DNA of 34,650 nucleotides from an uncultured Bacilli bacterium (GTDB taxonomy: Bacteria > Bacillota_I > Bacilli_A > RF39 > UBA660), in contig CALVRP010000092.1 in assembly GCA_944358665.1 (NCBI GenBank), positions 1-34,650 on the forward strand, written 5' to 3'. Positions 5,570 to 31,690 of the stretch are shown piece by piece (position 1 is the stretch's first letter; each line of letters starts with the position of its first letter). Under the pieces are notes generated by a model, which did not search any database, was not told the origin of the DNA, and saw only the letters and a list, made by a program, of their open reading frames with translations. A program made the position numbers and the translations under genes.

Positions 5570-6562
5570 GTGTTAGATTCTAATTTTAATCGAATAATTG
5601 AAATGATTGAAAAAAGAAAAAATAATGCTTATAGAAAAGTAAATGAAGAGATGATATTACTTTATCTAGATGTCGGCAAATTTTTATATGAATTAACAGA
5701 AAAAGGAAGTTATGGAGATAAAGTTATTGATAAGGCTGCTGATTTCATGAAAAATAATTATCCAGATATAAAAGGCTTTACTAAAAGAAATCTTTATAGA
5801 ATGGTTCAATTTTATAAAACGTATAAAAATTATCCAAAAGTGTCAACACTGTTGACACAATTGAGTTGGTCTGGTAATATGCTTATTTTAAGTAATACTA
5901 AAACATGGGAAGAAAGAGAATTTTATTTAAATTTAGCTATAAAAGAAAATTATTCTGTAAGAGAATTAAATAGACAGTTACAATCTTCATATTACCAAAG
6001 ATATATGTTATCTGATGGAAAGGTATTGCCAACCCAAAAGAAAACCATTGACGAAAGCGATTACCCAAACACAAGATTACTAGATACATATAGTTTAGAG
6101 TTTTTAGATTTGCCAAATGAGTATTCTGAGAATGATTTAAAAACCGCCATAATTAAAAACTTAAAAGATTTTATTTTAGAAATTGGCAAAGATTTTACCT
6201 TTATTGGTGATGAATACCGAATACAAGTTGGGAATCATGATTATTTTATAGATTTATTATTTTATAATAGAGAATTATCTTGTTTGGTGGCTTTCGAGTT
6301 AAAATTAGGTGAATTTATGCCAGAGTATTTAGGTAAAATGAATTTTTATTTGGAAGCTTTAGATCGTGATGTTAAAAAAGAAAATGAAAATCCAAGCGTT
6401 GGTATTATTTTATGTAGCTCAAAGGATAAAGATGTGGTAGAATATTCACTTAGTAAAACCATGTCACAAACATTAATTTCTGAATATAAATTAAAATTGA
6501 TTGATAAAAAAATATTAGAAGATAAATTAAGTGAAATGAAACAATTATTAGATAATAACTAA
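5570..6562 (+). CDS. PD-(D/E)XK nuclease family protein, DUF1016/YhcG-like
   Basis: GTG start after AAAGGTGGTGA. It has an N-terminal helical region and a C-terminal …IDLLFYNRELSCLVAFELKLGEF… (D…E-x-K nuclease core), the layout I recall for YhcG/DUF1016 proteins. Confidence 0.7.
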   Translation: MLDSNFNRIIEMIEKRKNNAYRKVNEEMILLYLDVGKFLYELTEKGSYGDKVIDKAADFMKNNYPDIKGFTKRNLYRMVQFYKTYKNYPKVSTLLTQLSWSGNMLILSNTKTWEEREFYLNLAIKENYSVRELNRQLQSSYYQRYMLSDGKVLPTQKKTIDESDYPNTRLLDTYSLEFLDLPNEYSENDLKTAIIKNLKDFILEIGKDFTFIGDEYRIQVGNHDYFIDLLFYNRELSCLVAFELKLGEFMPEYLGKMNFYLEALDRDVKKENENPSVGIILCSSKDKDVVEYSLSKTMSQTLISEYKLKLIDKKILEDKLSEMKQLLDNN

Positions 6563-6573
6563 AGGGAGGATTT

Positions 6574-6918
6574 ATGGATTATATATTTACATTTATATTT
6601 TGTTTTTTAGTAATTTATTTACTATATTTATTTGTTATTATTTTAAGAAAAAAAGGTTTAGAAAAATTTAAAACAAGTAAGCAATTAGAATATTTTAAAA
6701 TAAAATTTAAATTAGATACGACTAAGATAAATTTTAAAAAATTTGCAAATACACTAGCAATGACTAATGCATTTATAATTGCTTTTACGGTAACGGTTAT
6801 TGATATATTTGATAATTGGATTTTAAAAATCTTAGTGGCCTTTGTTATTTTACTGCCACTGATGTATTTATTATATACAATATTAGGAAACCATTATAAA
6901 AAGAAAGAAGGTAAATAA
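6574..6918 (+). CDS. Small integral membrane protein (about 3 TM), unknown function
   Basis: ATG follows GGGAGG. It has hydrophobic helices. Its stop TAA (6916-6918) overlaps the leuS ATG (6918-6920) as TAATG, implying translational coupling. Confidence 0.55.
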
Positions 6919-9314
6919 TGTATAATTTTAAAGAAATTGAAAAAAAGTGGCAAAAATATTGGGAAGAAAATGAAACATATAAATTTGATTTTAATGGCGA
7001 TAATAAAATATATTGTTTAGAAATGTTTTCTTATCCATCAGGAGCAAAATTACATCTAGGACATTGGTATAATTATTCAGTGCCTGATACTTGGGTAAGA
7101 TTTAAAAGAATGAATGGTTATAATGTTTATCAACCGATGGGCTTTGATGCGTTTGGCCTTCCTGCTGAAAATTACGCGATTAAAACCGGGATTCATCCCA
7201 AAGATAGTACTGAAGCTAATATTAAAAATATGATTGAGCAAATTAAAGCCATTGGTGGTACTTTTGATTGGCATAATGATGTTGTAACCTGTAGGCCTGA
7301 ATATTATAAATGGACGCAGTGGATGTTTTTAAAACTTTATGAACATGGTCTTGCTTATCAAAAAGAAGCACCTGTTAACTGGTGTCCATCTTGTAATACG
7401 GTTTTAGCCAATGAACAAGCTCAAGGCGGAATTTGTGAAAGATGTGGTAGTGAAGTTATTCATAAGAATTTAAAACAATGGTTGTTTAAAATTACTGATT
7501 ATGCGGATCAGTTAATTGATGACTTAGATAAAATTGATTGGCCTGAGAAAACTAAGACTGCGCAAAAAAATTGGATTGGTCGTAGTAAAGGCGCAATTAT
7601 TAAATTTAAAATAAAAGATTCTGAAGAAAGTTTTGAGGTTTTCACAACTAGATGTGATACTTTGTACGGTTGTACTTATTGTGTGTTGGCCCCTGAAAAT
7701 CCATTAGTTGATAAAATCGTTAAAGAAGAAAATTTAAATGCTGTGGAAAAATACAAAAAAGAAACATCTAAACTAAGTGAGATTGATAGGACTTCAACAG
7801 TAAAAGAAAAAACAGGTGTTTTTACGGGGGCTTATGCCATAAATCCAATAAATGGCAGAGAAGTACCAATTTGGATTTCTGATTATGTATTAGCAAGCTA
7901 TGGAACTGGTGCTGTAATGGCTGTTCCGGCTCATGATGAACGTGATTTTGAATTTGCTACTAAATTTAATTTACGAATTATTAGAGTTATTGAAGGCTGT
8001 GATCTTCCTTATATAGAAGAAGGTAAATATGTAAATTCTCCAATATTAGATGGATTTAGTAGTAAAGAAGAGGCTATTAATAAAATGATAGAATTTTTAG
8101 AAGAAAATAACTATGGTTACAAAAAAGTAAATTACCGTTTAAGAGACTGGTCTGTAGGCCGTCAAAGATATTGGGGAGCGCCAATTCCAATTATTTATTG
8201 TGATGATTGTGGTGTTGTACCAGTTCCTGAAGAAGATCTTCCAGTAGAGCTTCCTTATAATGTAGAATTCACACCAGATGGTGAAAGCCCTCTTGCTAAA
8301 TGTGAAGAATTTGTTAATTGTACTTGTCCAAAATGTGGCAAAAAAGCCAAAAGAGAAGTTGATACTTTAGATACCTTTGTATGTTCTTCTTGGTATCAAT
8401 TTAGATATGCTGATCCATTCAACAAGGAAATGCCTTTTTCAAAAGAAAAAGTAAATAAGATGCTTCCGGTCGATAAATATATTGGTGGAGCTGAACACTC
8501 TTGTATGCATTTAATTTATTCAAGGTTCTTTACTAAAGCACTTCGTGATATGGGCTATCTAGATTTTGATGAACCTTTTGCATCGCTTATTCACCAAGGT
8601 TTAATTTTAGATGCTAATGGTGCCAAAATGAGTAAATCAAAAGGCAATACAATTTCTCCAGATGATTATGTCGATAAATATGGCAGTGATATTTTAAGGA
8701 CATATCTAATGTTTGCTTTTAGTTATACCGATGGTGGCCCTTGGAGTGAAGAGGGTATTAAATCAATTGATAGATTTTATAAACGTATTTTAAATTTAAT
8801 TGAAGAATTTGATGGTAATGATTCCGATGAACGTTATGATGATGTCGATTATGTTTTAAATAATAGTATTAAATGTATAAGAAACGATTTAGATAATTTT
8901 CAATTTAATACTTCAATTTCGAGAATTATGGAATATTTAAATATTCTAATCAAAAAGAAAAGCGAAGGACTAAGTATTCCTAAGCATTATTTAGAACAAC
9001 TTATTCTTATTCTTGCGCCTTTTGCTCCGCATTTCACTGAAGAAATGTGGGAAAAATTAGGTCATACACCGAGTATTCATAATGAAAAATATCCAATGTA
9101 TGACGAAAGTAAAATGGTAAAAAATACTTTTGAATTAGTTGTTCAAGTAAATGGTAAAGTTCGCGGTAAAATAACCGTTTCTAGTGATATTAGTAAAGAA
9201 GAAATGGAAGAAATCGCACTAAAAAACGATAATGTTAAAAAGCATATAGAAGGTAAGGGAATCATTAAAGTGATTGTTATTCCTAAAAAGTTAGTTAATA
9301 TTGTAGTTAAATAA
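6918..9314 (+). CDS. leuS: Leucyl-tRNA synthetase
   Basis: 798 aa. It has the HIGH motif (HLGHWYNY), KMSKS (KMSKSKGN), an editing-domain region ([15 protein letters not shown]) and zinc-type CPSC/CERC cysteines. Confidence 0.95.
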
Positions 9315-12618: not shown

Positions 12619-12651
12619 AAAAGTAAAGATTCAATTTTCATCTTTACTTTT
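12619..12651. terminator. Bidirectional terminator hairpin shared by feoB and the convergent HTH gene
   Basis: 12-bp stem aaaagtaaagat (12619-12630) / atctttactttt (12640-12651), with A/T runs on both sides. Confidence 0.7.
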
Positions 12652-12846
12652 TTCAATAGTTATTAATTCTCCTGGATTACAGTTTAAATAGTAACAAAAT
12701 TCTTCAATATATTTAAAGGAAATAGAAGTGGTTTCTCCGCGAATAATTTTATTTAAATTTCTAGAGGTAATATTCATCTTTTGCCTTAGCCAGTATTTAC
12801 TTTTTTTATTTTTTTTAAGCAGTTCTTCAATATTTATTTTAATCAT
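12631..12846 (-). CDS. XRE/Cro-type helix-turn-helix transcriptional regulator (about 71 aa)
   Basis: MIKINIEELLKKNKKSKYWLRQKMNITSRNLNKIIRGETTSISFKYIEEFCYYLNCNPGELI is a typical HTH_XRE/HTH_26 pattern. The start is probably ATG 12846 (GGTGA upstream) rather than 12858. Confidence 0.75.
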   Translation of the reverse strand: MIKINIEELLKKNKKSKYWLRQKMNITSRNLNKIIRGETTSISFKYIEEFCYYLNCNPGELITIEKSKDEN

Positions 12847-12862
12847 AGGTATCACCAACTTA

Positions 12863-13021: not shown

Positions 13022-15910
13022 ATGAGGCGGGAGCGCAAAAGAAATAAAATAATAATAATGGTTAGTGCTGTTATATTATGTCTAATGGGAGTGGGTTATG
13101 CAGCTTTTCAAACCCAGTTAGATATTAAAGGAAATACCGAAATAAGTAGTGAGTGGAATATTAAAATAATAAGTGCCGAAGTAAGTGACATTGGTGGTTC
13201 TGGTGAGAATGTTAAAAATACTTATACTGATTTAACAGCTAATTTAGAAGCCAACTTATATAGTAAAGGTGATTATGTAGAGTATGAGGTTATAGTTGAA
13301 AACGCCGGAACTTTTGATGCGAAATTAGATACTTTAGGAATAACTAATAGTAATAATGAAGCGGTTAAAATAACATCATCAGGTTTAATAAAAGGTCAGC
13401 CTCTTTATAAAGGAGAGAGTGCTACTTTAACAGTAAGAATAGAATACAATAGTAATTACGAAGGAGACGCATCCGGAACTAGCGGAGAGACAACAGTAGA
13501 TTTAGGATTTGTTCAAAATAGTGAAGGAACAATAGTTCCAACAAATGATTATTTAGTAACTTATGATTACACTACTAATGGCGGAGAAAGTACAACTGCC
13601 GAGAATGAATATATAACTGAAGGCGAAAGTATTAATCTAAACTATACAGCTACTAAAACTAATTATGAATTTATAGGCTGGAATACAAATCAAGGGGCCT
13701 CAGAAGGATTAACTTCATTAACAATGGGAACAAGTGATATAACATTATATGCCATTTTTGAAGAGAGAATCCCACCAGAGATTAAACTATCTATTGGTGA
13801 TAATGTAGAAGGAGAAAATGATTGGTATAAAGGCTTAGATATAAATGTAGAAGCATCAGATAATGATAGTATAAAAGAAGCCTTATATTGTACAACTACA
13901 GAAGACACATGTACTCCAAATAAAAAGTTAGAACTTACAAATAATAAAGGAACAGTACAACTTGAAAGTAATAAAGATGCAAGTAAAGTATGCGTAAAGG
14001 CTACTGATAATGTTGGTAATGAAAGTACTACAAAATGCACAGATAGTTATAAAGTAGATGGAGAAGTTCCAACAATATCAAATATGACTGTAACTCCAGA
14101 TGATGATACCATGACAATAGAGTTAGAATCTAGTGACAATGAAAGTGGAATAGCTAAATATTATTTCAGTAAAGATAGTGGAAATAGTTATATAGAAAGT
14201 GATAATCCAAATTACACTTTTACATCACTAGATGAAGGAGATTATTTAGTAACTGCTTATGTTAAGGATAAAGCCGGAAATATCTCGGAGATAGAGGCTA
14301 AGTCAACTACTATAAGATATGCAGCCTTCTGTGAACATAATGACATAACTGATTTAGGAGACTGTATCATAGCTACCGAAGCTGGAAATGAAACTGATAT
14401 AGAACTTGCAAAATCCACTATAGAAGCTAAAGGGACACCTAATTTTAATACAACCAGTCCAAGCATTGTTTATAATGAATTACACGGAACAACAACATCG
14501 ACAACATCACATACATATTATGATAATATAGGAACAAATTATAGTTTTAATGCGACTACAGGAATATATACATTAAGAGATTATAGTTATGTCGATCCAT
14601 CTTCAATAGATTATAGTAGTGGAGATTATTATACTTGTATATCAACAGCTACAAGTTGTTCGACATTATATAAAATAACTGGAGTAACCACATCAACAAA
14701 CTCTTCCACTGGTCAAATCACGTATACAATAACAAAATATAACTACACCCAAACTCCAGCAAGTTATGATACAAGTGGAGTAGGAATGTATGCCGGAGAA
14801 GATAATGATGGAACTACCTATTATTACCGTGGCTCAGTTGGTGGAAACTACGTAAAATTTAATAATATGTACTGGCGAATAATAAGAGTAAATGGTGATG
14901 GCTCAGTTCGAATGATATATGATGGAACAAGTGCTCATGCTAATGGAGAGGCAAGCAGTAATAGACAAGTAACAACTAAAGCTTTTAATTCATATATCAA
15001 TGATAATGCCTATGTTGGTTATATGTATGGCGATGTCAATAATTTTGAGCAAACAGATAGTGGGTCTGTAACCTTTACCTATACTGGATTATCCAGCTCA
15101 GCAAGGTATTACTATGGTACGGATTATACTTTTAATGAAAGCACAAGAAGTTATACATTATCCGGAGATTTACACAATGGAACTTTAAGTAGTAGTCAAG
15201 TAGGATATTATACATGCTTTAGTACATCTAGTACGGCCTCATGCCAAAGATTATTCTATACTACAAGATATGCTTCAAGTACTTCAATGGTTGTAAGTGC
15301 AAGAGGTTACGGTTCAACATCATTAGAAGGAGCGCATGCCAATGTCACTGATAGTACAATGAAAACATACTTAGATAGTTGGTATAGTAGTAACTTAAGT
15401 AATCTCGATGATAAAATCTCTAAAGATGCAGTATTCTGTAATAACCGAAATAAATCAAGCAAAAATAGTGGAACATATACCAATACTGGTTATGGAATAA
15501 CACCAACAATCTATGGATATGAAAGATTCTGGAACTGGGCATCACAAGGAAAGTTAGATCCAACGTTAATGTGTGAAACGAATGATAGCTTTAGTGTTAA
15601 CCGGGGCAATAAAAAATTAACATACCCAGTTGGATTAATTACTGCTGATGAAGTAAACATAGCTGGCGGAATGACTGGTATGGTAAATTCGTTATATTAT
15701 TTATACACCGGAACTACATACTGGACCATGTCGCCGTCGTACTTCAGCAACTGGTTTAACGCTCTCGAGATGCTCGTCGACTCCTCAGGAGCGCTGGGCA
15801 GCAACGGCACCTCGAATGCGTACGGCGTGCGCCCAGTTATCAACCTAAATGCTGATAATCTGACGGTAACTGGATCTGGAACCATGGAAGACCCATTTGT
15901 TGTTTCGTAA
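13022..15910 (+). CDS. DGR target (variable) protein: N-terminal signal-anchor, Listeria-Bacteroides (InlB B-type) repeat, Ig-like domains, C-terminal lectin-like variable domain
   Basis: RBS AAGAGGTGA. The N-terminus is basic plus TM (MRRERKRNKIIIMVSAVILCLMGVGYAAF). YLVTYDYTTNGG…YEFIGWNT…ITLYAIF matches the Flg_new/InlB B-repeat. Two motifs of the form ATDNVGNES / VKDKAGNIS are typical of Ig-like surface domains. The C-terminus …YWTMSPS…AYGVRPVINL carries the VR. Confidence 0.85.
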   Translation: MRRERKRNKIIIMVSAVILCLMGVGYAAFQTQLDIKGNTEISSEWNIKIISAEVSDIGGSGENVKNTYTDLTANLEANLYSKGDYVEYEVIVENAGTFDAKLDTLGITNSNNEAVKITSSGLIKGQPLYKGESATLTVRIEYNSNYEGDASGTSGETTVDLGFVQNSEGTIVPTNDYLVTYDYTTNGGESTTAENEYITEGESINLNYTATKTNYEFIGWNTNQGASEGLTSLTMGTSDITLYAIFEERIPPEIKLSIGDNVEGENDWYKGLDINVEASDNDSIKEALYCTTTEDTCTPNKKLELTNNKGTVQLESNKDASKVCVKATDNVGNESTTKCTDSYKVDGEVPTISNMTVTPDDDTMTIELESSDNESGIAKYYFSKDSGNSYIESDNPNYTFTSLDEGDYLVTAYVKDKAGNISEIEAKSTTIRYAAFCEHNDITDLGDCIIATEAGNETDIELAKSTIEAKGTPNFNTTSPSIVYNELHGTTTSTTSHTYYDNIGTNYSFNATTGIYTLRDYSYVDPSSIDYSSGDYYTCISTATSCSTLYKITGVTTSTNSSTGQITYTITKYNYTQTPASYDTSGVGMYAGEDNDGTTYYYRGSVGGNYVKFNNMYWRIIRVNGDGSVRMIYDGTSAHANGEASSNRQVTTKAFNSYINDNAYVGYMYGDVNNFEQTDSGSVTFTYTGLSSSARYYYGTDYTFNESTRSYTLSGDLHNGTLSSSQVGYYTCFSTSSTASCQRLFYTTRYASSTSMVVSARGYGSTSLEGAHANVTDSTMKTYLDSWYSSNLSNLDDKISKDAVFCNNRNKSSKNSGTYTNTGYGITPTIYGYERFWNWASQGKLDPTLMCETNDSFSVNRGNKKLTYPVGLITADEVNIAGGMTGMVNSLYYLYTGTTYWTMSPSYFSNWFNALEMLVDSSGALGSNGTSNAYGVRPVINLNADNLTVTGSGTMEDPFVVS
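15728..15838 (+). repeat. DGR variable repeat (VR), codons 903-939 of the target gene
   Basis: 111 bp, 98/111 identical to 16010-16120. All 13 differences lie opposite TR adenines. Confidence 0.93.
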
Positions 15911-15947
15911 GAAACAACATTAAAAAACTTAATAATGATATATAATA

Positions 15948-15973
15948 GTCAAAAATGACTCTTCATTTTTGAC
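15948..15973 (+). terminator. Perfect 11-bp hairpin downstream of the target gene (terminator and/or DGR cis element)
   Basis: gtcaaaaatga (15948-15958) / tcatttttgac (15963-15973) with loop ctct. There is no T-tail after the stem. Confidence 0.45.
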
Positions 15974-16009
15974 CGGCATAGGGATTAGTCTCATAAGTGC
16001 GTGTGTGTT

Positions 16010-16120
16010 ATGTCGCCGTCGAACTTCAACAACTGGTTTAACGCTAACGAGATGAACGTCAACTCCTCAGGAGCGCTGAACAACAACAACACCTCGAATG
16101 CGTACGGCGTGCGCCCAATT
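16010..16120 (+). repeat. DGR template repeat (TR)
   Basis: Non-coding copy of the VR. In the VR reading frame it contains 11 AAC codons and 33 adenines in total. It is visibly GC-rich relative to its flanks. Confidence 0.93.
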
Positions 16121-16384
16121 TCCTACTACAATTAGTGATTATTTGCTAATGAACCGAGATGTTACAAGGCTACGGCTAATAACGGGAGGAAGTAGTTGCT
16201 GCAGGCAATAATCTATAAATTTAGATTGGAAACAAGATTAATTCCTTGGTCCTGCCTAAAAAGATAATATAGACGTTATATGACTATTTATAATATTTAT
16301 ATAACTACAGCTATATTGGTGGTAGAAATGTTAAGAGGTTTCTAGCCACACACCATAATTAAAATACTATTTTGGAGGAAATTT
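16121..16384 (+). ncRNA. Candidate DGR RNA spacer region downstream of TR (untranslated, several short hairpins)
   Basis: 264 nt with no credible ORF between TR and the accessory operon. It has nested stems gcagg (16201-05)/cctgc (16251-55), aatcta (16210-15)/tagatt (16222-27) and ggaa (16228-31)/ttcc (16242-45), plus a roughly 10-bp bulged stem at 16319-16349. Structure was judged by eye only. Confidence 0.3.
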
Positions 16385-16780
16385 ATGAAATTAATAGATA
16401 TTTATAACAGTTTAAAAGAACAGTATTTAGACGTAATAGTTTTAATGAAAAGTGGTAACTTTTATATAACTTATAATAATGATGCCCTAATATTAAATTA
16501 TCTCTTACACTATAAAAAGATAAATGGTAAAGTAGGTTTTCCTTTAAGTGCTTTAAAAACGGTGGAAAATAAGTTAAATGAAAAAGAAATAAGTTATATA
16601 GTTGCCCAAGAAAAAGAAAATTTAAAACAAAATAATAATTATTATATATATTTGCAAAAGGCTAATGAAAATTTAATAATCGATAATATGTGCGCCAATT
16701 TATTAAATAAAATAAAAGATAAAGTAGCTGAGAATTTTGATAATTATAAACAAATAAAGGAATATATAGATGAATTATAA
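16385..16780 (+). CDS. MutS domain I-like (mismatch-binding-domain-like) DGR accessory protein
   Basis: RBS GGAGG. LKEQYLDVIVLMKSGNFYITYNNDALILNYLL…GFPLSALKTVENKL parallels the MutS N-terminus (…QY…K…P…L…FRxGDFYELF…DA…LT…GvP…YL.KL). The Phe of the F-x-E mismatch motif is kept and the Glu is replaced (GNFYI, 16454-16468). It overlaps the next ORF by 11 nt. Confidence 0.6.
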   Translation: MKLIDIYNSLKEQYLDVIVLMKSGNFYITYNNDALILNYLLHYKKINGKVGFPLSALKTVENKLNEKEISYIVAQEKENLKQNNNYYIYLQKANENLIIDNMCANLLNKIKDKVAENFDNYKQIKEYIDEL

Positions 16781-17123
16781 TTTTAAAATTTTAAATAGTA
16801 CTTATAAAACTATTAATTATATAAATAAATTACTCGTAAATTTCCCCAAAAAAGAAGTTGTTCTTAAAAATAATATAGAAAAAACATGCTACGCAGCAAT
16901 TGAAAATATCTTCGCTTTTAACATTAATGACAGTATTCGTATTAAAGAAAAATATTTAAAAGATTTACTAGTAAAATTATCAATGTTAGATTTTTATACG
17001 AGAACTTCATATGATAAAAAAGTAATAAGTCGTCATCAATTCGAAGTTGTTAGTCGTTTTTTAATTCAAATAAGAAAGATGGCTTTTGGTTTAAAAAAGA
17101 AAGACGGTGAAGTAAGTGTCTAA
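16770..17123 (+). CDS. avd: Avd-like accessory variability determinant (four-helix-bundle protein)
   Basis: 117 aa. …INKLLVNFPKKEVVLKNNIEKTCYAAIENIFAF…LKDLLVKLSMLDFYTRTSY…ISRHQFEVVSRFLIQIRKMAFGLKK matches the FPK-x-E… / basic C-terminal pattern of Avd / 23S-IVS four-helix-bundle proteins. Its position in a DGR operon supports the call. Confidence 0.7.
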   Translation: MNYNFKILNSTYKTINYINKLLVNFPKKEVVLKNNIEKTCYAAIENIFAFNINDSIRIKEKYLKDLLVKLSMLDFYTRTSYDKKVISRHQFEVVSRFLIQIRKMAFGLKKKDGEVSV

Positions 17124-17763
17124 AAAAAAGATAATAATCATTATAATTATCGCGTTAATTATTTTAGGTATCATAATATATTTTGTAAATAAGAATTCTA
17201 ATGATCTTGCCATAAATAGTATAGTAAAACACGATGTAGCTGAAGATTTATATAAAGCAGTAGAACCAAATGAATGCGTTAATATAGATATAAATGAAAA
17301 GGTAAGTACACAAAAAATGAATGATGAAGTATTGCTTTATTTAATTTTCGGTCAAATGAACAAGGATAAATTGCTAACAGATAATATAAGTTTAAATGAC
17401 TTTAATAAGAGTGCAAAAAAAATATTAGGTGATGTAAAGATACCTAAACAAATTAAAAATTATGTATATGATGGTTATGTTTACAATTTAAATAATGATA
17501 AAATTACTAGGGAAAAGTATAATTGTGGTGATAAAAAATATGTGTCTAAATTATATGGGTACACAACTAATGAAAATCAGCTGATTTTAAATATTGCTGT
17601 CGCATATATTCAAAATGGTACTGTTTATAATTTAGATGATGAATTATTAGGTGAGTATGATGAAGAAAATTTAAATGAAATTTTAGATAAAGGTACGATG
17701 GAAGTATATACTTACACAAATACAAATGGTGATTATATTTTAGAAAGTATATCTTTAAAATAA
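17116..17763 (+). CDS. Membrane-anchored protein of unknown function embedded in the DGR operon
   Basis: GTG start overlapping the avd end by 8 nt. Its stop TAA (17761-63) overlaps the RT ATG (17763-65). It has an N-terminal TM (KKKIIIIIIIALIILGIIIYFV) and then a soluble domain of about 190 aa. No family was recognised. Confidence 0.55.
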   Translation: MSKKKIIIIIIIALIILGIIIYFVNKNSNDLAINSIVKHDVAEDLYKAVEPNECVNIDINEKVSTQKMNDEVLLYLIFGQMNKDKLLTDNISLNDFNKSAKKILGDVKIPKQIKNYVYDGYVYNLNNDKITREKYNCGDKKYVSKLYGYTTNENQLILNIAVAYIQNGTVYNLDDELLGEYDEENLNEILDKGTMEVYTYTNTNGDYILESISLK

Positions 17764-18875
17764 TGAGAGTAGAGTATAATGATATTTTATCCATAGATAA
17801 AATTATCGAAGTTTATAAAAATATTTGTTCAAATACTTGTCACAAGGCAAAGTTAGTTAAATTTGAATTAGCTTTTTCTTGTAATATAACAAAAATTCTA
17901 TGTTTGTTAAAAGAAAAAAAGTATAAACATAGTCATTACAGCACGTTTTTAATAAAAGAGCCAAAGTATCGGATAATTATGAGTGAATGTATATTTGATA
18001 AAATTGTCAATCATTTAATTAGTAAATACGTTCTTTTGCCATCTTTAATACCTAAGTTAATAAACATGAATGTCGCAACTAGAAAGTATAAAGGAAGTAA
18101 GGCTGGTATTAATTATTTGAAAAAATATATAAATAAATTAAAACAAAACTATGATAAAATTTATGTTTTAAAATGTGATATTAGTAAATACTTTTATAAT
18201 ATAAATCATGATATTCTAATAAAGAAATTACAAAAAGATATTCCTGATAAAGATTTGCAAAAAATAATTATTGAAATTATTAGTAGTACCAATTATGACT
18301 ATATAAATAAGCAAATAGATAGATTAATTGAAAAAGAAATTTTCCATTTGAAGGAAAAACAAATTTCTGATTTAGAAATAAAAATAAAAATAAAAGAACT
18401 GCATAGTTTACCGCGCTATAAAAAAGGAACTGGGTTACCTATAGGTAATGAAACAAGTCAAATTTTAGCTATATATTATTTAAATGAGCTTGATCATTAT
18501 ATAAAAGAAAAATTAAAAATAAAATATTATATAAGATATATGGATGATTTTATTTTACTGCATCGTGATAAAGAATATTTAAAATATTGTAAGGATAAAA
18601 TAAAAGAAAAAATAGAAGAGTTAGATTTAAAATTAAATAAAAAAACTCAAATATATGACTTAGATAAAGGTTTAAATTTTTTGGGTTATAAATTTAAATT
18701 AAAAGGTAAAAAATTAATTATTCTAATAAATAATCAAACCAAAAAAAGAGTAAAAAGAAAACTAAAAAAAATGAAAAAGAAAAATGTTAATAATTATAAG
18801 CAAGTAAAAGCAAGTTATAATGGTTATTTTAAAATAGCCAATACTAAAAACTTTTTATATAAAGCAAGATTTTAA
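17763..18875 (+). CDS. DGR-type reverse transcriptase
   Basis: RT motifs are present: KYRIIMSECIFDKIVNHLI (motifs 1-2), LKCDISKYFYNINH (motif 3), LPIGNETSQILAIYYLNELD (18441-18461; the [ILV]GxxxSQ signature of DGR RTs) and YMDD (18537-18548). No maturase/endonuclease or retron-like context. Confidence 0.88.
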   Translation: MRVEYNDILSIDKIIEVYKNICSNTCHKAKLVKFELAFSCNITKILCLLKEKKYKHSHYSTFLIKEPKYRIIMSECIFDKIVNHLISKYVLLPSLIPKLINMNVATRKYKGSKAGINYLKKYINKLKQNYDKIYVLKCDISKYFYNINHDILIKKLQKDIPDKDLQKIIIEIISSTNYDYINKQIDRLIEKEIFHLKEKQISDLEIKIKIKELHSLPRYKKGTGLPIGNETSQILAIYYLNELDHYIKEKLKIKYYIRYMDDFILLHRDKEYLKYCKDKIKEKIEELDLKLNKKTQIYDLDKGLNFLGYKFKLKGKKLIILINNQTKKRVKRKLKKMKKKNVNNYKQVKASYNGYFKIANTKNFLYKARF

Positions 18876-30670: not shown

Positions 30671-31690
30671 ATGGCAAAAGATTTAATGATTAGAAGTAGT
30701 AGTGCTGAATTTTTAATTTTTGAAAGACAAACTCATGATAAGGGAATCCAAGTTAGATTTGAAAATGGAGATTTATGGTTAACTCAAAGAGCCATTGGCG
30801 AGCTCTATAATGTTGATCGTACTGTAATTACAAAACATATAAAAAATATATATTCTGAATTGGAATTGAATGAACAGTCAACTAGTGCAATTTTTGCACT
30901 AGTTCAACAGGAAGGAAATCGTAATATTGAAAGAAAATTAAAATATTATAATTTAGATATGGTTATTTCTGTTGGTTATCGGGTTAATTCGGACAGGGCA
31001 ATTCAGTTTAGAAGATGGGCCACAAATATATTAAAAGAATTTTCTAAAAAAGGATATATAATTGATAAAAGAAGAATGGCTAACGGAACATTCTTTGATG
31101 AAGATTATTATGATTTATTATTAGCAGAAATAAGAGAAATAAGGTTATCTGAAAGAAGGTTTTATCAAAAAATTACCGATATTTATGCTACTAGCATTGA
31201 TTATGATAGAAAATCGCCGACAACAATTAAATTTTTTAAAAAAGTACAAAACAAAATGCACTATGCAGTATCACATCAAACCGCTGCTGAAATTATTTAT
31301 AATAGATCAAATGCTGAAAATGAGCATATGGGGCTTACAAATTGGAAAAACTCACCAAAGGGTAAAATACTGGAAACAGATGTGATAATTGCTAAGAACT
31401 ATTTATCTAAAGATGAATTAGAACAACTAGAATTAATTGTTACAGCTTTTTTAGATTTGGCTGAAGCTAGAGCCAAAAGACATATACCTATGACTATGGA
31501 AGATTGGGCTACTAGAATCGATAAATTTTTATTGTCTGATGATAGAGATATATTAAAAGATGCTGGTAAAATATCTCATGAAATAGCTTGTGATAAGGCT
31601 TTAACTGAATTTGAAAGATATAGAGTGAAACAAGACAAATTATATAAATCAGATTTTGATTTATTGTTAGAAGAAATAGATAAATCATAA
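30671..31690 (+). CDS. RhuM-family (virulence protein RhuM-like) protein
   Basis: …FENGDLWLTQRAIGELYNVDRTVITKHIKNIY…YYNLDMVISVGYRVNSDRAIQFRRWATNILKEF…KGYIIDKRRM… is the conserved RhuM core as I recall it. Confidence 0.75.
   Translation: MAKDLMIRSSSAEFLIFERQTHDKGIQVRFENGDLWLTQRAIGELYNVDRTVITKHIKNIYSELELNEQSTSAIFALVQQEGNRNIERKLKYYNLDMVISVGYRVNSDRAIQFRRWATNILKEFSKKGYIIDKRRMANGTFFDEDYYDLLLAEIREIRLSERRFYQKITDIYATSIDYDRKSPTTIKFFKKVQNKMHYAVSHQTAAEIIYNRSNAENEHMGLTNWKNSPKGKILETDVIIAKNYLSKDELEQLELIVTAFLDLAEARAKRHIPMTMEDWATRIDKFLLSDDRDILKDAGKISHEIACDKALTEFERYRVKQDKLYKSDFDLLLEEIDKS

Follow-up and report, generated by a model that had tools for sequence, protein, structure and literature searches.

The accessory proteins of diversity-generating retroelements (DGRs) were grouped by Wu et al. 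(2018; PMC5758913) into four classes: Avd, HRDC, MSL and CH1. The MSL proteins are MutS-like, near-neutral and 112-283 amino acids (aa) long, and every MSL-containing DGR in that survey, including the one from Legionella, also carried avd, a combination termed Architecture D (Wu et al., 2018; PMC5758913). Msl has been named in Bacteroides DGRs as well (bioRxiv 10.1101/2024.11.15.621889), and the pairing of MSL with Avd is already known. We examined a stretch of 34,650 nucleotides (nt) from an uncultured Bacilli bacterium (GenBank assembly GCA_944358665.1, contig CALVRP010000092.1, positions 1 to 34,650 of the forward strand; hereafter, the window) and identified in it a chromosomal DGR of the Architecture D type. 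Its elements are ordered as target gene with variable repeat (VR), template repeat (TR), spacer, msl, avd, orf3 and the gene for the reverse transcriptase (RT). The product of orf3 (ORF3) is a predicted membrane-anchored protein that may act with the variable surface protein rather than in mutagenesis.

As in the Architecture D elements of Legionella pneumophila and of Bacteroides (Bfr, Bth and Bun, with Msl), the cassette of the window combines TR, RT and avd with a small, near-neutral protein resembling MutS domain I. Like them, it belongs to a cellular rather than a phage genome and diversifies a surface protein at its C-terminus, and MSL is always accompanied by avd. The sequence-only reading of the window had called this accessory set unusual; for MSL and Avd that description does not hold, because the pair is published Architecture D and the commonest layout among the RT relatives that we surveyed. 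What differs is the extra gene for a 215-aa membrane protein between avd and RT, the host, which belongs to the uncultured gut Bacilli of low GC content (28.6% in the window), and the ~970-aa multi-domain target with its clade-specific N-terminal module. The prototype DGR of Bordetella phage BPP-1 (mtd-avd-TR-brt) shares with the window the adenine-specific transfer from TR to VR, the Avd and RT proteins and the position of the VR at the 3' end of the target gene. It is, however, phage-borne and carries neither Msl nor a membrane protein gene, and its avd lies upstream of TR, whereas in the window TR lies upstream of msl-avd.

Among described accessory proteins, those of the CH1 class (Wu et al., 2018) resemble ORF3 in being small, acidic (pI, isoelectric point, ~4.7), devoid of a recognisable motif and conserved beside DGR genes. 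Compared by description only, CH1 proteins are 160-169 aa long and are restricted to DGRs that lack avd, HRDC and MSL alike, whereas ORF3 proteins (205-222 aa) have a transmembrane anchor and accompany avd and MSL. With 215 aa, such an anchor and both avd and msl as neighbours, the protein of the window falls outside the CH1 class. Neither an ORF3-like gene nor its association with a target is described in the DGR literature that we searched, which did not extend to the 'sandwiched genes' tables of Wu et al. (2018), where Firmicutes bacterium CAG:822 (L017 in our survey) could figure; the earlier claim that ORF3 has no counterpart in described DGR models is upheld within that literature.

ORF3, a gene between avd and the reverse transcriptase

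The orf3 gene (17116..17763, + strand, GTG start, 215 aa) was characterized through its homologues, an AlphaFold2 (AF2) model, predicted topology, cysteine co-variation, the ratio of nonsynonymous to synonymous substitutions (dN/dS) and its distribution on the RT tree. It is embedded in a chain of + strand genes in which msl and avd overlap by 11 nt, avd and orf3 by 8 nt, and orf3 and the RT gene by 1 nt (TAATG). The four chained reading frames had been noted from the sequence alone, and all of their coordinates and overlaps were confirmed as one overlapping unit. Overlapping junctions (TAATG, ATGA or ATGAnTAA) recur in all 18 of the distinct related loci that have all three genes, which argues that the chaining is conserved rather than a chance product of AT-rich DNA. 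The cassette genes are predicted to form one translationally coupled operon. No + strand terminator was found in the cassette, and a promoter scan returned 56 promoter-like sites against 50 expected, an uninformative result in DNA of 28.6% GC.

ORF3 has no family match in Pfam, NCBIfam or PHROGs, as the sequence-only reading had anticipated. A word-indexed search recovered 14 homologues (37-69% identity) and a full profile search gathered 122 representative clusters, 85 of them at E < 1e-10. This family includes forms of 230-275 aa with longer Lys-rich N-terminal tails and short forms with the C-terminal domain only. The AF2 model (pLDDT 76, pTM 0.69) begins with a transmembrane helix (residues 3-30) and a low-confidence linker, followed by an ectodomain that is modelled as a helical hairpin (helices 71-83 and 93-104) and a curved domain formed by a nine-stranded beta-sheet and one further helix. 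Foldseek searches of the model against PDB and BFVD gave no significant match; the best E-value was 0.018, and the partial matches to NTF2/SnoaL/cystatin-like folds covered ~75-80 columns at query-normalised TM-scores of 0.2-0.23. The charge of the N-terminal tail (+4) exceeds that of the segment after the transmembrane helix (+1), and a positive-inside pattern of this kind is present in 90% of 76 full-length family members. Only ~5 residues (MSKKK) are predicted to be cytoplasmic, and the ectodomain is acidic (pI 4.6, with 4.88 for the whole protein). Further, Cys54 and Cys137 co-vary in the family (both in 63 members, neither in 8 and one in 5), consistent with a putative disulphide between them. 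The modelled helix and the charge and cysteine patterns support the earlier proposal of a membrane-anchored, probably extracytoplasmic protein, whose topology is probably type II (N-in/C-out).

ORF3 is a real gene under purifying selection, since it is intact in >20 distinct loci, has pairwise dN/dS values of 0.13-0.41 and retains its overlapping junctions. The protein evolves 2-6 times faster than Avd/RT. For example, the window and the related locus L002 (L001, L002 and so on label the related loci and contigs compared with the window) share 59% identity in ORF3, as against 76% in MSL, 87% in Avd and 80% in RT.

To place the gene among related elements, we scanned one genome per species with an RT profile and obtained 80 loci, which were annotated with MSL, Avd, ORF3, RT and target profiles and arranged on a neighbour-joining RT tree. 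Nearly all derive from gut metagenome-assembled genomes (MAGs) of uncultured Bacilli, Mycoplasma sp. CAG:776/956, Firmicutes bacterium CAG:822, Candidatus Faecimonas and similar organisms. MSL-Avd-RT, with avd overlapping RT directly, was the commonest layout among the RT relatives. Within DGRs, ORF3 is confined to one monophyletic RT clade (at least 61% RT identity to the window), and every intact member of this clade carries it. The sister clades (RT identity 47-60%) are without ORF3 and have the order MSL-Avd-RT or Avd-RT, again with avd overlapping RT directly. The chained order msl-avd-orf3-RT recurs among the loci with the closest RTs, and ORF3 is clade-restricted. In L019 and L022, orf3 (6598-6993) has lost profile positions 55-134 in frame, leaving 131 aa, and msl has moved to the 3' side of the RT gene (8034/8124-8537).

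Two sets of candidates were rejected during the survey. L087 was considered as an ORF3-less member of the clade, but its RT gene has lost the 5' end and follows fragments of other surface-protein genes, which marks it as a decayed element. Similarly, ORFs of ~215 aa with a transmembrane segment on the 3' side of some RTs (L058, L061 and others) were considered as displaced ORF3; they have no profile similarity to it, and by sequence they resemble other products, among them an amidase-type enzyme and a multi-pass membrane protein. We also noted a decaying DGR in L006 (2495-5086), where an insertion sequence with a DDE_Tnp_1 transposase has cut avd to 44 aa and the RT gene is frameshifted while ORF3 is intact. 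An ORF for a membrane-anchored protein of 147 aa lies between the DcuC-like and YgjP-like genes of L001 (9506-9949) and L018 (9874-10317) and is absent from the window; its match to the ORF3 profile is weak (E 3e-4) and limited to the N-terminal anchor region.

Five contigs from two sub-lineages (L005, L094, L095, L097 and L100) carry an intact ORF3 gene 2-18 nt behind the 3' end of a VR-bearing target, within unrelated flanks. No TR, avd or RT was found at these loci. In L005 and L094, orf3 starts 2 nt past the target stop codon with its own ribosome-binding site, and the DNA of target plus ORF3 is 95-98% identical to that of the DGR-bearing loci L007 and L008. Downstream lies a two-component system in L005 and, at the end of ORF3, a terminator-like hairpin in L094. 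We rejected the possibility that these two are simple RT-deletion alleles of the DGR locus because, downstream, the two contigs share no related flank with the DGR loci or with one another. The VR of L094 differs from the TR of L007 at 17 positions, 15 of which are TR adenines.

In the second sub-lineage (L095, L097 and L100), ORF3 follows the VR-bearing 3' end of the target by 18 nt. L097 and L100 share their downstream flanks (82% identity, with SpoU and TrmD genes), and these bear no relation to the flanks of the DGR loci L096 and L098. L097 and L098 belong to one assembly, and the VR of L097 departs from the second TR of L098 at 15 positions, every one of them a TR adenine. In L095 (1-450), the target has collapsed to a 49-aa remnant in which the signal peptide is fused to the last ~15 residues; next come a hybrid of the TR 5' flank and the VR/target 3' end, which looks like the product of TR x VR recombination, and then an intact ORF3. 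Thus, ORF3 can persist beside a non-functional target. As in remote DGR targets, the VR-bearing 3' ends of L094, L005, L097 and L100 lie away from RT and Avd and, the exceptions in L094 apart, differ from their cognate TR at adenines only. They differ from such targets in that each copy is followed by its own ORF3, and remote targets that each bring a copy of an in-cassette gene were not found described in the literature searched.

Some DGRs of the clade have two tandem TR-like copies (L098, 1285-1432 and 1457-1603; L007, 3061-3200 and 3215-3342). The second copy of L098 fits the remote VR of L097, from which it differs at adenines only, better than it fits the adjacent VR (3 non-adenine differences), and this suggests one TR per target.

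A third position relative to the DGR genes is seen in L105, where ORF3 lies 18 nt 3' of an RT gene (~60% identity to the clade RTs), with an AGGAGG of its own and rpmE behind it. In L106, a distant relative of ORF3 lies 19 nt upstream of the gene for a surface protein of >871 aa, which has a camelysin-type N-terminus, a Flg_new repeat and 34% identity over 152 aa to the target of the window; residues 14-91 of this large protein match Peptidase_M73. The ORF3 family also exists outside DGRs: two further distant members, in L103 and L104, have an HD-like gene and ClpB as neighbours in one case and a LysM protein in the other, and no DGR or target-like neighbour was seen in these short contigs.

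The target of the window (13022..15910, + strand) is a predicted variable surface protein of 962 aa with an N-terminal hydrophobic signal or anchor, Flg_new and PKD/Ig-like domains and a C-terminal VR-bearing domain with a weak match to DUF6273. Its N-terminus (MRRERKRNKIIIMVSAVILCLMGVGYAAFQTQ..., window 13022-13150) presumably resembles the signal region of camelysin/TasA (SipW-type) proteins. A profile of the N-terminal 260 residues matched the target in all 12 of the ORF3 loci where this region is within reach; it matched none of ~30 loci without ORF3, where the targets are shorter and have the same middle and VR domains.

Candidate roles for ORF3

The sequence-only reading had offered three options for ORF3: a passenger, a partner or chaperone of the surface target, or a new accessory factor. 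A partnership with the surface target fits the data best, and we rate the passenger and the homing factor lower. A wider family of envelope proteins would be the source of ORF3, which a single DGR clade would have recruited in one event. Once exported, it would act at the cell surface with the ~970-aa variable protein and may serve as anchor, docking partner or chaperone for the clade-specific N-terminal module of the target. The tie to the target is indicated by the intact copies that adjoin adenine-diversified targets at loci without TR, avd and RT. On this genomic evidence, we regard a role as surface partner of the variable protein, separate from mutagenesis, as about evenly balanced. A more specific proposal, which we make more tentatively, is that ORF3 is a dedicated, invariant membrane adaptor, a third functional class of DGR cassette gene. 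It would act on the protein product and not on retrohoming, and would duplicate along with the VR-bearing genes, giving every variable protein an anchor or chaperone of its own. Several observations weigh against the partnership. The link between ORF3 and target is one of genomic association only, and the correlation with the N-terminal module reflects a single evolutionary event in one clade and is therefore confounded by phylogeny. The co-evolution signal of ORF3 only leans towards the target over RT (partial r 0.48 versus 0.23), in a comparison of 8 taxa and non-independent pairs to which we give no weight. In addition, 80 ectodomain residues are deleted in frame in L019/L022, ORF3 is intact beside the collapsed target remnant of L095, the relatives in L103 and L104 have no target-like neighbour within their short contigs, and the modelled fold is without a significant structural match.

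Some of these same observations would suit a hitch-hiker: an envelope gene that entered the cassette once, serves neither the DGR nor the variable protein, and is kept by its own housekeeping-type role and by ends locked in the translational coupling to RT. The family occurs outside DGRs (L103 and L104), sister DGRs work without ORF3, the protein evolves faster than Avd and RT, the L019/L022 deletion removed the middle but spared both coupled ends, and the L095 copy has outlived its target. Trapping alone is, however, hard to invoke for a gene linked to DGRs in three positions (in the avd/RT interval, 3' of RT in L105 and 3' of RT-less targets), and the distant relative in L106 again adjoins a similar large surface protein. 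Furthermore, copies without a downstream RT are still intact, and coupling to RT is therefore not what preserves the gene. We consider the hitch-hiker doubtful, and fixation in one RT clade, purifying selection and the copies beside targets without RT/Avd all speak against a random passenger. A clade-specific accessory or regulator that is needed for retrohoming or gates it, for example by tethering the RT-Avd-RNA complex to the membrane or coupling it to the state of the envelope, would explain why ORF3 occupies the avd/RT interval with overlapping stop and start codons in every clade member and is conserved across RT divergence down to ~61% identity. Yet the cytoplasmic tail of five residues and the acidic, probably disulphide-bonded ectodomain, ill-suited to contact with nucleic acid or RT, leave almost nothing to touch that complex. 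ORF3 is also absent from sister DGRs with the same MSL/Avd/RT set, which excludes a general or core homing factor, and it also occurs where RT/Avd are missing and outside DGRs altogether. For these reasons, we regard a role in homing as very improbable.

Retrohoming genes and the MutS-like protein

The repeats of the window carry the signature of adenine mutagenesis. The VR (15728..15838, + strand), within the 3' end of the target gene, is 88% identical to the TR (16010..16120, + strand), which lies 282 nt beyond it. All 13 differences between them are at TR adenines, and in the target they fall on first or second codon positions only. The VR copies of related contigs also vary at adenine sites, both among themselves and relative to TR. 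RT and Avd would copy the TR RNA into adenine-mutated cDNA, which would then replace the VR, as inferred from the families to which the two proteins belong. The non-coding spacer between TR and msl (16121..16384, + strand) has no ORF of at least 50 aa. By analogy with the TR-spacer RNA of BPP-1, it is presumably part of the DGR RNA (the priming and Avd-RT binding region). A 12-bp inverted repeat (AGTCAAAAATGA...TCATTTTTGACC) at window positions 15947-15974, between the target stop codon and TR, could be a terminator of the target gene or a cis element of the DGR.

The avd gene (ORF2; 16770..17123, + strand, ATG start) encodes a basic protein of 117 aa (pI 9.79) that matches bAvd (PF22296; 44.8 bits, cut-off 40) and the PHROG annotated 'Avd protein of DGR' (phrog_3206; E 9e-21). 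Its score against the NCBIfam model DivGenRetAVD (NF033474) is 47.9 bits, under the equivalog cut-off of 80. Basic, within the ~110-130 aa of Avd proteins and adjoining RT and TR, it is assigned to Avd on these matches. The last gene of the cassette (17763..18875, + strand) encodes a 370-aa protein that we assign, likewise by homology, to the DGR-type RTs. It matches RVT_1 (E 7e-16) and phrog_1423 (E 4.9e-82), its translation shows the IGNETSQ and YMDD motifs, and its relatives are flanked by avd and TR/VR across the 80 loci.

The first gene, msl (ORF1; 16385..16780, + strand, ATG start), encodes a protein with the features of the MSL class (131 aa, pI 6.59, MutS homology). It co-occurs with avd, through their 11-nt overlap, and no cassette ORF matched HRDC. 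Residues 4-70 match Pfam MutS_I (PF01624; E 9.4e-7) with 29.5 bits, over a gathering score of 20.6. A profile of 20 ORF1 relatives matched domain I of MSH6 and Taq MutS among PDB sequences (E 6.5e-4 to 2.4e-3), and hhalign aligned it to residues 12-95 of E. coli MutS (E 1.8e-5, probability 78%). The likeness to domain I of MutS/MSH6 extends over ~70-75 residues and includes G-x-F-Y...D-D-A. In the GNFYI motif (residues 24-28), F26 aligns with F36 of MutS and F432 of MSH6, and I28 with E38 of MutS. Thus, of the F-x-E motif ORF1 keeps the Phe and has Ile in place of the Glu. All 20 aligned MSLs have the stacking Phe; at the Glu position, 15 carry a hydrophobic or aromatic residue, one carries Glu (L067) and another Asp (L070). 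MutS_I is the sole match in ORF1, which lacks domains II-V of MutS (the connector, core, clamp, ABC ATPase and helix-turn-helix parts) as well as the parts that signal to MutL, and has instead a family-specific helical C-terminal half ending in ...IDEL. ORF1 is, from these alignments, a stand-alone homologue of MutS domain I without the Glu and without all other MutS domains; profile searches upheld the relation to MutS domain I, and the sequence-only description of a look-alike that keeps the stacking Phe was borne out. At the C-terminus of the MSL proteins is a conserved NY-x-KIK-x-FIDEL motif, where the gene overlaps the start codon of avd, and the conservation of this motif may come either from the protein or from the overlapping avd start and ribosome-binding site.

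Msl would bind the mismatch-dense heteroduplex of cDNA and VR and shield it from host mismatch repair without starting repair. In MutS, Glu38 authorises repair and is not required for DNA binding. This property of Glu38, together with the suppression of Bacteroides retrohoming by host MutS, leads us to propose, by analogy, that Msl probably shields the heteroduplex from host MutS. In Bacteroides, retrohoming rose 5-10-fold on deletion of the host mutS, an all-or-nothing effect (bioRxiv 10.1101/2024.11.15.621889) that gives a MutS-domain decoy a rationale. Two points temper the case for the shield. The AF2 model of Msl, built from an alignment of five close sequences, is poor (pLDDT 58.8), and its Foldseek matches were unrelated KCTD and LOV folds rather than MutS, a result that at this model quality does not count against a MutS-type fold. 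Moreover, MSL has been lost upstream of avd in L001, L017, L020, L023 and L008-L011, all in the ORF3 clade, and is therefore dispensable or replaceable. Msl could instead promote homing, by recognising or stabilising the cDNA:VR heteroduplex for strand exchange or cDNA integration. Such a positive role would agree with the invariance of the mismatch-stacking Phe and with the fixed position of MSL directly upstream of avd in ~50 loci (54 matches to the MSL profile in the surveyed loci). It would also agree with systems in which a shield is not needed, for BPP-1 homing does not need MutS, and mutS deletion was without effect on an insertion-repair reporter in an E. coli DGR reconstitution (PMC12875486). 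The Bacteroides result, on the other hand, favours the shield, and the repeated loss of MSL while RT and Avd stay intact is hard on a promoter of homing, a role that we consider unlikely. Msl is present, lost or relocated to the 3' side of RT within a single RT clade, and this natural experiment could help assign its mechanism.

Genomic setting and significance

The window and its closest relatives are syntenic chromosomal loci, with the order FeoB, a small helix-turn-helix gene, the target, and, after the RT gene, radical SAM, DcuC-like, YgjP-like and M23 peptidase genes. A phage origin was rejected, since the window carries housekeeping rather than phage genes and a search of IMG/VR returned no ORF3. 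The helix-turn-helix gene (75 aa; window 12631-12858, - strand) lies just upstream of the target in divergent orientation, and the gene at the same position in the syntenic L001 and L002 is annotated HTH_26; its product is a candidate regulator of the target/DGR operon. Also among the housekeeping genes are a RhuM-family protein gene (30671-31690) and the gene of a YhcG/DUF1016 PDDEXK nuclease (5570-6562), which may be mobile-element or defence-related remnants and are apparently unrelated to the DGR.

Surveys of DGRs class the genes of the cassette by their presumed role in retrohoming, and ORF3 may be an exception inside the enzymatic operon. If it is, the case would warn that a conserved 'sandwiched' DGR gene need not be a homing factor. 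It would also offer a handle on how the uncultured gut Bacilli known from MAGs ('uncultured Bacilli' and Mycoplasma sp. CAG) display their large, variable, adhesin-like proteins.

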